64,000 nt of DNA, taken from the sequence record NZ_CP067021.1; one strand, 5' to 3'. Source of the DNA: a plasmid. The position numbers are program-made. Positions 28,301 to 43,300 of this stretch are shown here, piece by piece (position 1 is the stretch's first letter; each line of letters starts with the position of its first letter).

Positions 28301-31300
28301 AGATCGAGGGGATATATTGATAGTCCACCTTTCATACAATATGTTTGCGAACGTGGTGCACGGCGATCGGTTGATCTATGGACCGTGCGTTATCCCATGC
28401 TACCTGAGCTTGCTCTAAAGTATATACGTGTGTCTTTTTACATTAATGTCTTAAACTGGCAAAATGTAAAATCAACAACTTACATCAAATCTAATTGAAT
28501 AAATCCACATTACAGTTCTAAACTCAATGGATTTTTCAGTTTAGAAAAATAGCGGTTTTTTACAATATAGTTGTAAACCTAGCCTTTCCAAATTGGTAAA
28601 ACTTCTTCAAAGGAAACTAGATAGATGGTTTGGAAGATGAACTCGTTTCATTATGGTTGGTATTTTCACCGTTACCCAATCTTTTTGTTTCTGTAACTGC
28701 TTGAGATTTTATAAAAATTACCTCTGTACACGACAAAAATAGATAACTCATTGAAATAATGTCACAATAATTGTTTTCTAACGACGAATACTATGACACA
28801 TCTCAATGAGTTATATCTTATCTTAAACAAATCTCTAAAATGGAACAAGTCACATTTAAAGTGCTTTGCGCTCATCATGCTTGTGATCATTTTAAAGCAA
28901 ACATGTAATCTTTCTTCTGCATCTAAAGCCTTGCCCATCAAGTGCTTACCACAATCATTTTATCGACGTATGCAGCGCTTCTTTGCAGGTCAGTATTTTG
29001 ATTATCGTCAAATTTCTCAGTTGATTTTCAATATGTTTTCATTCGACAAAGTGCAACTGACTTTAGATAGAACCAATTGGAAATGGGGAAAACGAAATAT
29101 TAATATCCTGATGCTCGCAATCGTTTATCGTGGAATAGCGATACCTATCCTTTGGACATTGCTTAATAAACGTGGAAATTCAGATACGAAAGAGCGTATT
29201 GCTTTGATTCAACGCTTTATAGCCATTTTTGGTAAAGACCGTATTGTGAATGTGTTCGCAGACAGAGAGTTTATCGGTGAGCAGTGGTTTACATGGTTAA
29301 TTGAACAAGACATCAACTTCTGCATTCGTGTTAAAAAAACTTCATTGTCACCAATCATTTAGGAAAGAATCATAAAATTAGTGATTTATTTCGCCATCTT
29401 AAAGTTGGTCAAATTGAATGTCGTAAACGACGGATTTTGGTTGGTCGGGTGAAACTATATATAAGTGCACTACAGTTAGAAAATGGAGAGCTTTTACTCG
29501 TCGTTTCTCCTCAGTTTAATGCCAATGCTATTCAGGATTATGCATTACGCTGGGAAATTGAAACCTTATTCAGTTGTCTCAAAGGACGCGGGTTTAATCT
29601 TGAAAATACGCGCTTGACAGACCCTAGACGAGTGAAAAAATTGATTGCGGTGTTAGCTATAAGCTTCTGTTGGTGTTACTTAACGGGTGAATGGCAACAT
29701 AATCAAAAAAAAGCGATAAAAATAAAGAAGCATGGACGACTCTCAATGAGTTTATTTCGCTATGGTTTAGACTATGTTCAAATGGCGATTCAGCGTTTAA
29801 TTGGTTTTGGGAAAAAAGAAGAGTTTAAGGAAATTTTGGCAATTTTAAGAAAGCAGAATCCTGATAGGATAAGGGTTCTGTGAAATTTGTCGTGTACAGA
29901 GAAAAATTACAATACCTAAAACAATAATACCAACCACAAGAACTATTAATAGAATTTTATTCTTTTTCATAAGATTTTATAAAAACTGCCCAAATTTAAA
30001 ATTGCAATCTTTTGCAGATGTGTATTGAGAAACAGCTCACCCATTATCTAGGGTTTCATAGTGTGTACCGGATACATTCTAAAATCTTTTATCACTTTTA
30101 GGATCAACAAACCCTGCTCTAACACGATACCCACTTGGGTTACTTGAATTATCTGTTCGTTGGTTGCCATTAGTAGCTTTTTGATCTGTTTTTACATATA
30201 GATTTTTATGTATGTACACCTGTTAAAGCATCATAAGAAATAGATTCGTTATACCAACCATATCCAAAACTTGGAATATATGCTTCTGTAAAATTTGACA
30301 TTTTTTTTAATCTCTCTTTGTTTGCAACTATATTGTTAAAGTTTAGGACTTTAATGTCCAGTTTACGTTTGTGTTGTCAAATCACATATAAAGATAAGAT
30401 CCGAGATATTAATGTTCTTCGAGCTAATAAAGGATTAAAACCTGTCAGAAAAGCAAATACAGCTGGCAGTATTTATGCTCGTTGGTATCTTGTTTATCAG
30501 GATCTTTTAATCATCATTGAGTGCCAAGTGGCTTTAAATAAAAAAGGCCCAGGTCTACCAGCTGGTATGCGTGACCTATTGTTGTACCATCTAGCAAACG
30601 CTTTAAGTTGGTTTACTATTTCAGATGCACTAGAAAATGAAGTCGCTGAGTGTGCAAGAAAATTTACTCCAAGCTTGTCACATCAAGAAGCTCTTTCTTA
30701 TTGTTCAAGTGTAATCAACCGAGCCAAAAAGACCCAAATTGAAGGTAAAGAACATCGTTATCGCTACAGACGAGAAACGATTTATCGTGAGTTAGAGGAT
30801 CTTATTCCTGAAGAAGTCTTACCACGCTTAAGGGCTATTATTCCAAATGAATTGGCAAGAGAAAGGAAGTTGGAAAGAACGTTGGAATCAAGACGAGAAA
30901 AAGGGATAGCTGAACGGGTCATCTATCGTGAAAGTCTTCAGACCAATAAATCTAAAGCGATTAAATTAAAAGCCCAAGGTTTAAAATATAAGGAAATCGC
31001 ATTAGAACTAAATCTATCCATTGATACTATTAAAGGGTATTTCAGGAAAGGTGTATTGGTATGATGCCTTGTATAGTGGCGCGTGTCAGGCGTTTACTGC
31101 ATTTGATTTGTTATGCTCTCTCCCCTTTCACAAGCTGGTGAAGCTTTATATGTTTAATAAGGAGCTTCACCATCTTTTTACAGTTAATATTTATTGAACT
31201 AATTTCATCAAACTACCAAAACTATCAATCACAGAATATTGAACTGCATCCCCCAATGATTGATTTTCTTGATTTATAGTAGCGAAGAACTTTTCAGCAC

Positions 31301-40300: not shown

Positions 40301-43300
40301 TGAGAAATTATAACAGTATAACAACCCTATACATGCCTCAAATCCAAAGTAAAGTTAGCCCATTTAAAAAGTGTATAGGTGTGATGCCTTGTATAGTGGC
40401 GTTAGCCAGCCGTTCCTTTTGCCTGGTACACATGCTTAACCTGGGCCATAGGTTCTCTTCAGATCCTCAGTGATCTTCATTTGAATGAAACCTAAGTTAT
40501 TACGCCAAAGATTAAAACTATACGCGTACAGCCTTCAGATCCGCAGTAAAGCATTCAATCTAAAAAAGTGTATAGGTGTGATGCCTTGTATAGTGGCGTT
40601 AGCCAGCCGTTCCTGTCTTTTTACATTAATGTCTTAAACTGGCAAAATGTAAAATCAACAACTTACATCAAATCTAATTGAATAAATCCACATTACAGTT
40701 CTAAACTCAATGGATTTTTCAGTTTAGAAAAATAGCGGTTTTTTACAATATAGTTGTAAACCTAGCCTTTCCAAATTGGTAAAACTTCTTCAAAGGAAAC
40801 TAGATAGATGGTTTGGAAGATGAACTCGTTTCATTATGGTTGGTATTTTCACCGTTACCCAATCTTTTTGTTTCTGTAACTGCTTGAGATTTTATAAAAA
40901 TTACAATACCTAAAACAATAATACCAACCACAAGAACTATTAATAGAATTTTATTCTTTTTCATAAGATTTTATAAAAACTGCCCAAATTTAAAATTGCA
41001 ATCTTTTGCAGATGTGTATTGAGAAACAGCTCACCCATTATCTAGGGTTTCATAGTGTGTACCGGATACATTCTAAAATCTTTTATCACTTTTAGGATCA
41101 ACAAACCCTGCTCTAACACGATACCCACTTGGGTTACTTGAATTATCTGTTCGTTGGTTGCCATTAGTAGCTTTTTGATCTGTTTTTACATATAGATTTT
41201 TATGTATGTACACCTGTTAAAGCATCATAAGAAATAGATTCGTTATACCAACCATATCCAAAACTTGGAATATATGCTTCTGTAAAATTTGACATTTTTT
41301 TTAATCTCTCTTTGTTTACAACTATATTGTTAAAGTTTAGGACTTTAATGTCCAGTTTACGTTTGTGTTGTCAAATCACAACGTGCGCTTGATCAACATT
41401 CGTTGTATAGCCCTTTCCGTTAAAACCAGGCCACCCAATATTTGAGCCGACATTATGTCTAAAACAAGCTAGGTAAAGTTCAGTCATAAAGTTTCTCTTA
41501 AGCTACTTTCTTATTCAGTATGTGTTCGGCTAAGCGCTTGATACCGCCACCGTCCGTAATTAAATGTTCAAATAATTCGCCATTCGGGTTTTTAACTCCT
41601 TCCAACTGGCCTTTTTTGATGCCTAAGACATCAGAAATAATTGGATCTGAACCCGAATCAGCCAACAAGTAATATGCCGAGATCTGTTTGATTTGACCGT
41701 CACGGTCTAAGCGACCAATACATTGATCATGAACACCAGGCGACCAATCCAACTCACCAAACACAAATGTTTTGCATTTTGAGTGGTACTGCAAGCCATC
41801 AAGCCCGGCAGATGAACGTAATGAACTAATGAAGACTTTGCTTTCATCATTCAAGAATGCTTGTTTAGAACGTTCCTTAGCTGCAGGTCCTTCCGTGCCT
41901 GTATACATAACAGGATTGAATTCAGCCAAGCGTTCTAGCCAAATGTTGTACACATCTCGATGCCAACCATAAAGCATGACTGATTCACCAGACTCAACAA
42001 GCATACGCACGAACTCAGCGACATACGGCGCTTTGGCGATACCTGTTGCTTGGCGCATCATAATATTGAATTCTTCTGTCGCACGAAGCTTTTGCCCTTG
42101 GAATTCCTGAGTAGAGCTTAAAATTACTTTTGCCAGTTCCATTGCCTTGCCCTTAATTTGATCCAGTACTTTAGGATCGCTTTCGACATATTGAGGGATG
42201 ATTTGTACTGGCGGTAACTCTCGATTTACATCTGCTCGAGTACGGCGCAACATTAGACCTTCATCACGTAAAAACATCCCAAACGCTTTAGGATCATTAA
42301 TACGTTTTTCTTGTGAACACCACTCACGAGCGAATTCAGTAGCGGTACCTAAGCTATCTGGACGCAATATTTCAATGATGTTGTAGAATTCATCACCGTA
42401 GTTATAAATCGGTGTAGCTGATAGACCGAGGCGTAATTCAGCTTGGTCACTAATGAGTTTAGCAGCGGAATACTTTTGCGATGTATAGCCAGTCCGTAAC
42501 TCTTGGATCTCGTCAAACACTACGTACTTAATCTTTCCGGCAAGATATTCAGCCCAACCGTTCAACTTTGAATAACTGGTGATAATGACATCGGGTGCTG
42601 CTTCACCCTCTTTGTGCAATGGATAAGGCGATGCTTTCTTTAGGATGTGACATTTTAGGTGCGGAGCAAAGCGTTCAATTTCATTCTTAATTTGCATTGG
42701 AAGATGTGTCATTGTCACAAAAAGCGCCGGGAGCGATTCAGGTAGAATCATCGGACATATTCCACTCGCTGTTTTGCCAAGGCCCAAATCATCCCCCAAG
42801 AGCAAACCTTTAACATTAAGTAGTAGATCTGCAGCTGCTCTTTGATACTCATATGGAGGCACGGCAAGATCAAATGTTTTGATCGGACGTTTATAGTCCA
42901 TCACATCCAAAATATCTTCTTTTAGCGACACATAAGCCTTAGATTGCGCTTTCATGTATTTAAGATCATCAACATGCATTGGATAACGTTCAATAAACCA
43001 AAGTAGGTCGTGACAATTAGACGGCGTATCGCTTAACTCAATAAATTTTGATGCATGTTGGCTGACTTGTGGGAATACACGCTTAAGTCGTGTTTTAACA
43101 TGTGGTTCACATTCAATGTGCCAGTTTTTTTCTTGACGAGAAATGGTGCCGTAAGATTTAGACATTAGAAGACCCCCACTAAAATACGATGGCGGTAAAT
43201 AAATTTATTGTTCAGTTGGATTGGAATGTTATTCACCCAATACGGTGTACCAACCACATAGAGCGCTTTTATGCTGTCATGGCTTAAATAGCGATTGATC

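Follow-up and report, generated by a model that had tools for sequence, protein, structure and literature searches.

What are the short direct repeats that bracket a restriction–modification operon on plasmid NZ_CP067021.1, and why do they stand on both sides of it? The stretch analysed here (64,000 nt; hereafter the window) contains a four-gene operon with one repeat, R1, just downstream and two further copies, R2 and R3, just upstream, for which an initial annotation had offered two explanations: that the operon was once a discrete module with att-like (recombination-site) or iteron-like boundaries, or that R is a regulator-binding array controlling the operon promoter. Comparison with other plasmids identifies R instead as the conserved core of a 197-bp tandem repeat in the replication region of the pALWED2.2/pFM-M19 plasmid family of Acinetobacter, and the R copies most likely represent replication-origin sites. 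In the window these repeats are relics, because the neighbouring replication gene, rep, is truncated and only 1.26 repeat units are left upstream of the operon.

The repeats themselves are genuine and not a product of chance, and, as had been described, all three run in the same direction around the operon. The 21-mer GTGATGCCTTGTATAGTGGCG, with up to 3 mismatches allowed, occurs three times on the + strand of the 64-kb window, against an expectation of 0.00 and no occurrence in 100 shuffles. R2 (40366-40417) and R3 are identical at 52 of 52 bp; R1 shares 77% identity with them over 52 bp and 32 of 36 positions in its first 36 bp. The short direct repeat CTTCAGATCC(T/G)CAGT, a 15-mer noticed earlier between R2 and R3, was recovered at 40457 and 40533, with 0.01 occurrences expected. 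Other elements of the early description required adjustment. R3 does end where the 767-bp repeat B2 begins, the T at 40614 being common to both, but its position had been given one base off. The two TGTATAG half-sites, reported as 17 bp apart in each copy, are present in R2 and R3 with starts 18 bp apart and 11 bp between them, but the first word of R1 reads TGTATTG. Finally, R2 and R3, although identical, are not separate repeats of 45-52 bp: their starts lie 197 bp apart, and R2, the 145 bp that follow and R3 together make up 1.26 copies of one tandem unit. Tandem Repeats Finder reported no array in the window, since 1.26 copies fall below its threshold.

Plasmid records reveal where such units occur in full. 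A search with window positions 40300-40700 matched 68 records, 66 of them from Acinetobacter and several with many matches each; window positions 40366-40562 are 97-99% identical to units of pFM-M19 and pBDT2091-6, with the next 52 bp in register, and query positions 31-66, upstream of R2, also aligned to array units of other plasmids. Arrays of the 197-bp unit, with ~6 to ~27 copies, are present in all eight plasmids of the pALWED2.2/pFM-M19 family found in Acinetobacter, including pMsp65 (~6 units), pFM-M19 (~7), pALWED2.2 (12.9), pBDT2044-6 (13.6 + 4.3), pYH16056-2 (four pieces) and pBDT2091-6 (11.3 + 12.7 units either side of the record start, or ~27 in total if the 645 bp between the two retrieved pieces are also array). 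These are conjugative plasmids of 43-63 kb with IncP-like trb/tra genes, assigned to MOBP11 (PMC7693717), and share the gene order SprT-like gene, rep, array with or without cargo, a gene for a conserved 145-aa protein, topoisomerase III and trb. A 2020 classification lists pALWED2.2 without a rep gene or repeats, its groupings being built on transfer and partition genes (PMC7693717), and no description of the 197-bp array or of the conserved site was found in the searchable literature.

Alignment of eight unit variants resolves the unit into blocks. Block 1 is R itself (positions 1-47), almost invariant from CCTTGTATAGTGGCGTTAGCCAGC onwards with a variable left TGTATAG word; block 2 (positions ~113-176) is also conserved, and the 65 bp between them (positions 48-112) have diverged beyond alignment, so that only ~45 bp per 197-bp unit constitute the conserved core. 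Other lineages of the repeat have TGTAAGG or TGTATGG in place of the first word, the second word alone being conserved. Such block-wise conservation across unit variants is, on comparative grounds, the mark of selection on R.

The array is physically linked to rep. In pALWED2.2 and pBDT2044-6 the first array unit begins at the rep stop codon, and R1, which overlaps the rep stop in the window as it does in pFM-M19 and pMsp65, is therefore the first unit of the array; moreover, each of the eight plasmids in which a full-length Rep reaches at least 84% identity carries the array as well. In the window, positions 30376-31190 match genes annotated by NCBI as 'DNA-primase RepB domain-containing protein' in the array plasmids, and the open reading frame (ORF) at 30318-31064 holds the last 224 residues of the 448-aa Rep, 100% identical to those of pFM-M19, its first ~24 codons being read from the neighbouring element B. 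Its C-terminus contains a Sigma70_r4-like helix–turn–helix (HTH) according to Pfam. The full-length Rep matches a PrimPol archaeo-eukaryotic-type primase (AEP) domain in the PDB (E 1.2e-4), gives a weak match to Pfam RepB_primase (19.6-21.9 bits, below the cut-off of 24.3) and ends in a sigma-70 region 4-like HTH, and the motifs D.D, SGRG.H and TR.LRL.GS.NS are kept in relatives as far as Clostridium. Homologues matched 617 plasmid records, in 80 of which at least 80% of the protein was covered. On Clostridium plasmids of 5-6 kb they are among the few genes there, those on C. botulinum plasmids of 17.5 kb bear the annotation replication protein, and the pAca1.1 homologue appears as a replicase type beside a predicted origin in a survey of Acidithiobacillus caldus plasmids from 2025 (PMC12375680). 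Owing to this occurrence on small plasmids, the annotations, the survey listing and the domain matches, the 448-aa protein is classified by its sequence as a replication initiator, of which the window retains a truncated copy, and a primase-type initiator is plausible. Other searches added little: a protein word-index search with the C-terminal half returned 4 matches only, an all-helical AlphaFold model of that half (predicted local distance difference test score 77) had no significant fold match in the PDB (best E 0.3), and Rep gave no match to Pfam Replicase (PF03090) or PriCT_1.

The site recurs behind rep in distant relatives. As defined by this comparison, the R core consists of AAGTG, a spacer of 8-15 nt, CCTTGTATAG and a short GC dyad, and is conserved next to rep. 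In Massilia putida, whose Rep is 47% identical, the corresponding sequence is GCCTTGTATAGTGGGCGTAGCC, with the rep stop codon inside the motif and a second copy 102 bp further; in pACA1.1 of Acidithiobacillus caldus it is CCCCTTGTATAGCCCC, 12 nt after the rep stop; and in a Methylomarinovum plasmid it is CGCCTTGTATATCC, ~30 nt after the stop. A metagenome scan with the Rep alignment yielded 80 loci, 52 of them distinct, and CTT[GA]TATA was found on the coding strand within -20 to +80 of the rep stop at 35 of these 52, against a background of 0.005 per 100 nt; its positions range from -20 to +36, compared with +6 in the window. A perfect GC dyad of 3-6 bp follows the motif by 0-4 nt at 38 of 41 distinct junctions, compared with 30% of control positions, and the stem type differs by clade (GGGC/GCCC, TGGC/GCCA or CCC/GGG). 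The dyad TGGC-GTTA-GCCA is kept in R2 and R3 and has been lost in R1 of the window type and of pMsp65. Such a dyad may be a hairpin but could equally be the binding site of a protein dimer. Massilia-type clades carry two direct copies of the site, 92-102 bp apart. Coding constraint cannot explain the motif, as the stop codon precedes it in most lineages.

A simpler account would make R only a transcription terminator of rep and the array a functionless selfish satellite, produced by slippage or unequal crossing-over. A weak terminator-like hairpin with a T-run is indeed called in every R, array length ranges widely, from 1 to ~27 copies, and homogeneity within an array is expected from unequal crossing-over alone. 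However, a terminator does not explain ten bases that are conserved across very different base compositions, from Acinetobacter (~35% G+C) to high-G+C Massilia and Acidithiobacillus, nor does it account for R and block 2 being conserved as blocks when diverged arrays are compared, and this combination is regarded as distinctly unlikely.

From the ColE2-like geometry, together with the presence of the site next to rep in distant relatives, we infer that the R core is the site recognised by Rep, where Rep would bind, prime and start replication. In the ancestral layout the array begins at the stop codon of rep, whose 448-aa product combines a primase domain of archaeo-eukaryotic type with a C-terminal HTH, and the origin would lie directly behind the gene, as in ColE2. 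Multiplication of this origin into an array would be specific to the Acinetobacter lineage; the extra copies would probably titrate Rep and thereby influence copy number and incompatibility. The array is in addition a tolerated landing zone for cargo. The operon was inserted after the first unit, leaving repeat copies on both sides; two copies of the mobile element B later landed in a plasmid of pFM-M19 type, one in rep and one in the array, and the B-bounded segment then transposed into the megaplasmid with the truncated rep, R1, the operon and 1.26 units. The sequences themselves show the repeat family, its tie to rep, the interruptions by cargo and the insertion of the composite; binding and priming by Rep, origin function and control of copy number are inferences from them.

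The behaviour of the operon as cargo bears directly on both explanations first offered. In pFM-M19 and pMsp65 the same four genes stand with R1/rep on one side and the remaining array on the other, and the array is present without them in pALWED2.2, pBDT2044-6 and pBDT2091-6. Mapping of pYH16056-2 with its own unit shows an array broken up by three different blocks of cargo, one of which is a further type III system. The proposal that R copies are att-like or other recombination sites delimiting a site-specifically mobilised module draws on these direct repeats, which flank the operon in the window, pFM-M19 and pMsp65 and other cargo in pYH16056-2 likewise; but flanking copies arise automatically upon insertion into a tandem array. 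The cargo junctions fall at differing positions of the unit (65|61, 150|135 and 195|1 in pYH16056-2; ~50 and ~128-197 in the window), which leaves no fixed crossover, and one pYH16056-2 junction has the 5-bp overlap expected for ordinary transposition. Furthermore, no recombinase or integrase gene is annotated in the inspected cargo blocks and flanks, where no systematic search was made, and the pdif pattern TTCGTATAA-N6-TTATGTTAA (28-bp XerC-spacer-XerD), with up to 3 mismatches, had no match anywhere in the window. A recurrent breakpoint at unit positions 52-55 in pYH16056-2 proved to be an artefact of mapping with the wrong unit variant and disappeared with the plasmid's own unit. The repeats thus bracket the operon because cargo inserted into a tandem array; the earlier idea of a discrete module survives in its iteron-like form, R being the core of a rep-linked tandem repeat, but not in its att-like form, which is very unlikely.

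The regulatory alternative, in which R is an operator array through whose two TGTATAG words the adjacent HTH protein would bind and govern the promoter of the helicase/restriction operon, has the geometry in its favour, as R2 and R3 lie 94-300 bp upstream of the operon's first gene (start codon at 40272; R2 is nearest, at 94 bp) and an HTH-containing ORF is adjacent. That ORF, however, is the truncated Rep described above and not a dedicated regulator, the array exists in operon-free plasmids and stands ~730 bp from the same operon in pFM-M19, and the first TGTATAG word varies between lineages. Moreover, neither R nor the sequence next to it showed a promoter-like site on the operon strand, and in the sister megaplasmid pJNE5-X3_NDM-1 the same composite recurs with a single R, not two, upstream of the operon, that is, one 197-bp unit fewer. 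The operator explanation is therefore not supported and is regarded as extremely improbable. In pJNE5-X3_NDM-1 the R cores lie at 3681-3701 and 13082-13102 of the retrieved stretch, and the rep remnant is further disrupted by an IS3-family element.

Block 2 brings in another alternative. Long direct-repeat arrays act as centromeres in some plasmids, and the array could accordingly be a partition centromere, or a platform for a maintenance protein (ParB/KorB or the 145-aa protein) other than Rep; the fixed position of the array between rep and the conserved 145-aa gene and the otherwise unexplained block 2 are compatible with such a role. Against it, the R core stands next to rep in distant plasmids with different or no partition genes nearby, and a more usual candidate is available in the four 20-bp repeats upstream of the family's ParA-like operon. 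In pBDT2091-6 these tandem repeats (TTCTAGGAATATTTAAGAAT) lie directly upstream of the ParA-like ATPase operon, at 25613-25692 of the retrieved stretch, and are a plausible partition centromere of the plasmid family. Overall, a centromere or maintenance platform is considered unlikely.

Several further features of the unit were noted. Within block 2 the R core recurs in inverted and split form (GTATAGT GGCGT versus ACGCC, 10 nt, ACTATAC; alignment columns 25-41 versus 133-161). In an alignment fold of the eight unit variants the R core is complementary to block 2 with every pair invariant and hence no covariation evidence, so that a structure and a repeated binding motif are indistinguishable in block 2. 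The word TTTGAAT at the start of block 2 is also found after the core in Massilia-type loci. The array of pFM-M19 stops at unit position 156 in a hairpin with a 9-bp stem (5419-5443 of the record stretch), whose partner, unit positions 147-167 copied in inverted orientation, overlaps the conserved 145-aa gene at its 3' end, and the end of the pBDT2044-6 array is arranged in the same way. Single-strand folding of the unit was no better than that of shuffles on either strand (z-scores 0.44 and -0.21), and an Rfam search of 30000-41500 with E up to 1 returned no relevant match.

The origin interpretation, despite being preferred, has to be weighed against a series of contrary observations. No match to a DnaA box was found in the pALWED2.2 array, whose G+C content of 43%, compared with 30-38% in the flanks, leaves no AT-rich element. 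The array is a point of gene convergence and, in pALWED2.2, of maximal cumulative GC skew, the opposite of a typical origin, although the skew of this plasmid follows gene orientation and is thus uninformative for the origin. Beside distant rep homologues, searches for tandem repeats turned up one or two sites and no long arrays, from which it follows that the array is not required by the Rep family. At 197 bp the period is some tenfold longer than in iterons, the conservation of block 2 is left without explanation by an origin, and the rep-proximal R1 of the window lineage has lost its GC dyad. In addition, an hhalign comparison of Rep with the ColE2-type Rep was not significant (probability 2.9%), and the link between Rep and R is itself drawn from sequence comparison.

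The origin sites reached the window within a mobile segment, the parts of which are given in Table 1. Positions 28426-41385 form a composite with two direct copies of element B, carrying the truncated rep, R1, the operon and the 1.26 units. The capture by miniature inverted-repeat transposable elements (MITEs) proposed in the initial annotation is borne out by the B-bounded structure, by the 5-bp duplication ACGTG and by the empty site (joined flanks with a single ACGTG), which 15 or more Acinetobacter megaplasmids of 250-360 kb contain with 100% identity. Full-length B is present in at least 12 other Acinetobacter plasmids, and p1OC061 has a B copy beside a class 1 integron, its record holding two B places. 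The insertion sequence within B1 is missing in pR1041-ab1-275k, an otherwise near-identical plasmid in which an IS481-family element instead separates the truncated rep from the operon. The inverted repeat between the convergent rep and res genes is a presumed terminator.

Table 1. Coordinates of the composite, the rep remnant, the repeats and the operon in the window.
Feature	Position	Strand	Remarks
Left target-site duplication ACGTG	28426-28430		5 bp
B1, left part (B positions 1-291)	28431-28721	+	100% identical to 40615-40904
Insertion sequence in B1, with DDE_Tnp_1 ORFs (Pfam)	28722-29901		9-bp duplication; B positions 282-290 on both sides
B1, right part, cutting rep	29902-30386	+	485 bp; one mismatch to 40896-41380
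Truncated rep	30387-31064	+	Residues ~224-448 of the 448-aa Rep: helical domain and C-terminal HTH; primase-type N-terminal half missing
R1, degenerate first repeat	31046-31097	+	Overlaps rep stop TGA 31062-31064; core CTTGTATAG at 31068-31076; GC dyad lost
Inverted repeat between convergent rep and res	31125-31183		21-nt arms, 81% complementary
Four-gene operon (cargo)	31191-40272	-	Pfam and PADLOC
Type III Res	31191-34361	-	Pfam/PADLOC
Type III Mod	34375-36303	-	Pfam/PADLOC
DUF4391 protein	36317-37000	-	Pfam/PADLOC
SNF2-type helicase	36997-40272	-	Pfam/PADLOC
Degenerate remnant of unit tail (unit positions ~128-186)	40304-40365	+	Local alignment; weak, low score
One full 197-bp unit	40366-40562	+	R2, then variable segment, then conserved block 2 at ~40476-40540
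R2 core CCTTGTATAG	40388-40397	+	Followed by dyad TGGC-GTTA-GCCA at 40398-40409
R3, first 52 bp of next unit, cut by B2	40563-40614	+	By identity to R2
B2, complete 767-bp element B	40614-41380	+	TGT...ACA ends; compared with B1
Right target-site duplication ACGTG	41381-41385		5 bp

Other sequences in the window and beyond it complete the picture. An element of ~410 bp is present in three copies (11389-11798, 13359-13768 and 19708-20117), its ends resembling those of B (75% over 146 bp at one end and 91% over 47 bp at the other), which suggests that it and B belong to one family of non-autonomous elements with common terminal sequences. The ORF at 44914-45621, annotated as type I-E Cas6/CasE in a near-identical record, stands alone beside SprT-like and helicase genes in the megaplasmid backbone. 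Diverged two-unit remnants of the array lie beside a RelE/NadS toxin–antitoxin pair, IS17 and a bacteriophage exclusion (BREX) system in the three plasmids inspected, the DUT-2 plasmid unnamed1 and two ~150-kb A. baumannii plasmids (6038-6384, 7001-7255 and ~6840-7277 of the retrieved stretches); no rep of pFM-M19 type is annotated within these stretches of 12-14 kb, and most other records with 73-80% identity to the unit are similar large plasmids. In a collection of species-representative genomes the core occurs in three Acinetobacter contigs only, two of them at contig ends. Two contigs of a phage collection, CAKLQF020000035.1 and CAKLQH020000045.1 ('Acinetobacter phage MD-2021a'), each contain two places resembling the 197-bp unit at 76% identity and may be plasmid-derived or mislabelled.

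The significance of these observations lies in the plasmids concerned, since OXA-23 is carried by pALWED2.2, pFM-M19, pIHIT7853 and their relatives, which pass from one Acinetobacter species to another. In the 2020 classification they are given neither a replication gene nor an origin (PMC7693717), and no other paper on the point was found. One candidate for a minimal origin is the short conserved site behind rep that a widespread family of primase-type Reps has in common; it is accompanied in Acinetobacter by a 197-bp array that is very variable in length and accumulates cargo. If confirmed, this would assist plasmid typing, as short-read assemblies collapse the array, and would help to explain incompatibility within the family and the gathering of defence systems and resistance genes at the array. 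The relic in the window records how a transposon brought a restriction–modification operon into a megaplasmid along with part of the replication region of another plasmid. A more far-reaching proposal would hold that CCTTRTATAG plus the dyad is the origin of a large family of primase-initiator plasmids in Acinetobacter, Massilia, Acidithiobacillus and many uncultured hosts; that in Acinetobacter it was amplified into multi-kilobase origin arrays that set copy number and incompatibility and offer a redundant landing pad for defence and resistance cargo; and that the two intact R sites in the window, possibly with the DNA-binding half of the truncated Rep, could still titrate Rep and so let the megaplasmid interfere with incoming plasmids of pFM-M19 type. 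Taken as a whole, this extended scenario is speculative and somewhat unlikely.

Among known systems, the composite resembles other MITE-bounded composites of Acinetobacter in its two direct copies of a non-autonomous element, its captured segment and its 5-bp target duplication, but differs from them in its cargo, a piece of another plasmid's replication region together with a restriction–modification operon. The iteron arrays of theta plasmids, such as origin iterons and the incA control locus of P1, consist of repeats of 17-22 bp. Like them, the R array is formed by direct repeats in one orientation next to rep with a variable copy number, and by analogy a role in Rep titration and incompatibility is plausible; unlike iterons, which are spaced in helical phase, its unit measures 197 bp with a ~45-bp core, it lacks DnaA boxes and an AT-rich element, and distant members of the Rep family have one or two sites only. 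In RSF1010 (IncQ), the RepB' primase acts with the recognition sites ssiA and ssiB, alongside RepA, a helicase, and RepC, which binds iterons. The weak, sub-threshold RepB_primase match at the N-terminus of Rep may recall this system, as may, in comparison with the ssi sites, a conserved sequence beside a short GC dyad, possibly a hairpin, and the partial inverted copy of the core in block 2. However, no gene of RepA-helicase or RepC type is annotated in the inspected regions, for which no dedicated search was made, and the initiator here carries its own HTH; in the Methylomarinovum plasmid a second gene next to rep is annotated as 'replication initiation protein'.

The closest parallels are origins situated behind their initiator gene. 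In pRN1 of Sulfolobus the origin lies downstream of the primase-type rep, so that, as here, an element follows a rep encoding an AEP domain and a DNA-binding domain (PMC4234260), but the pRN1 element is a 100-nt stem-loop and its Rep includes a superfamily 3 helicase, whereas folding of the 197-bp unit is unremarkable and no helicase domain was found in Rep. The ColE2 origin spans 32 bp, contains two direct repeats and lies just downstream of rep (PMC6856555), and in the ColE2-type plasmid pIGMS5 the origin, when checked, starts at the rep stop codon. As in ColE2-P9, the R site stands at or just after the rep stop, is some tens of bp long with two short direct repeats inside it, and its Rep would be a plasmid-specified primase-type initiator, here judged from the AEP-type match; both sites also hold GCCTTAT at a similar distance from the stop, a tentative resemblance. 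In contrast to ColE2, the Rep described here has no PF03090/PriCT_1 match, whereas the ColE2-type Rep matches PF03090 at 3e-41, the site is repeated up to ~27 times with a 197-bp period, and the hosts of the array are conjugative Acinetobacter plasmids of 43-63 kb. In kind, the array varies a known theme, that of origin-associated repeats beside rep, and what sets it apart is the 197-bp period, the length of the array and the primase-type initiator.

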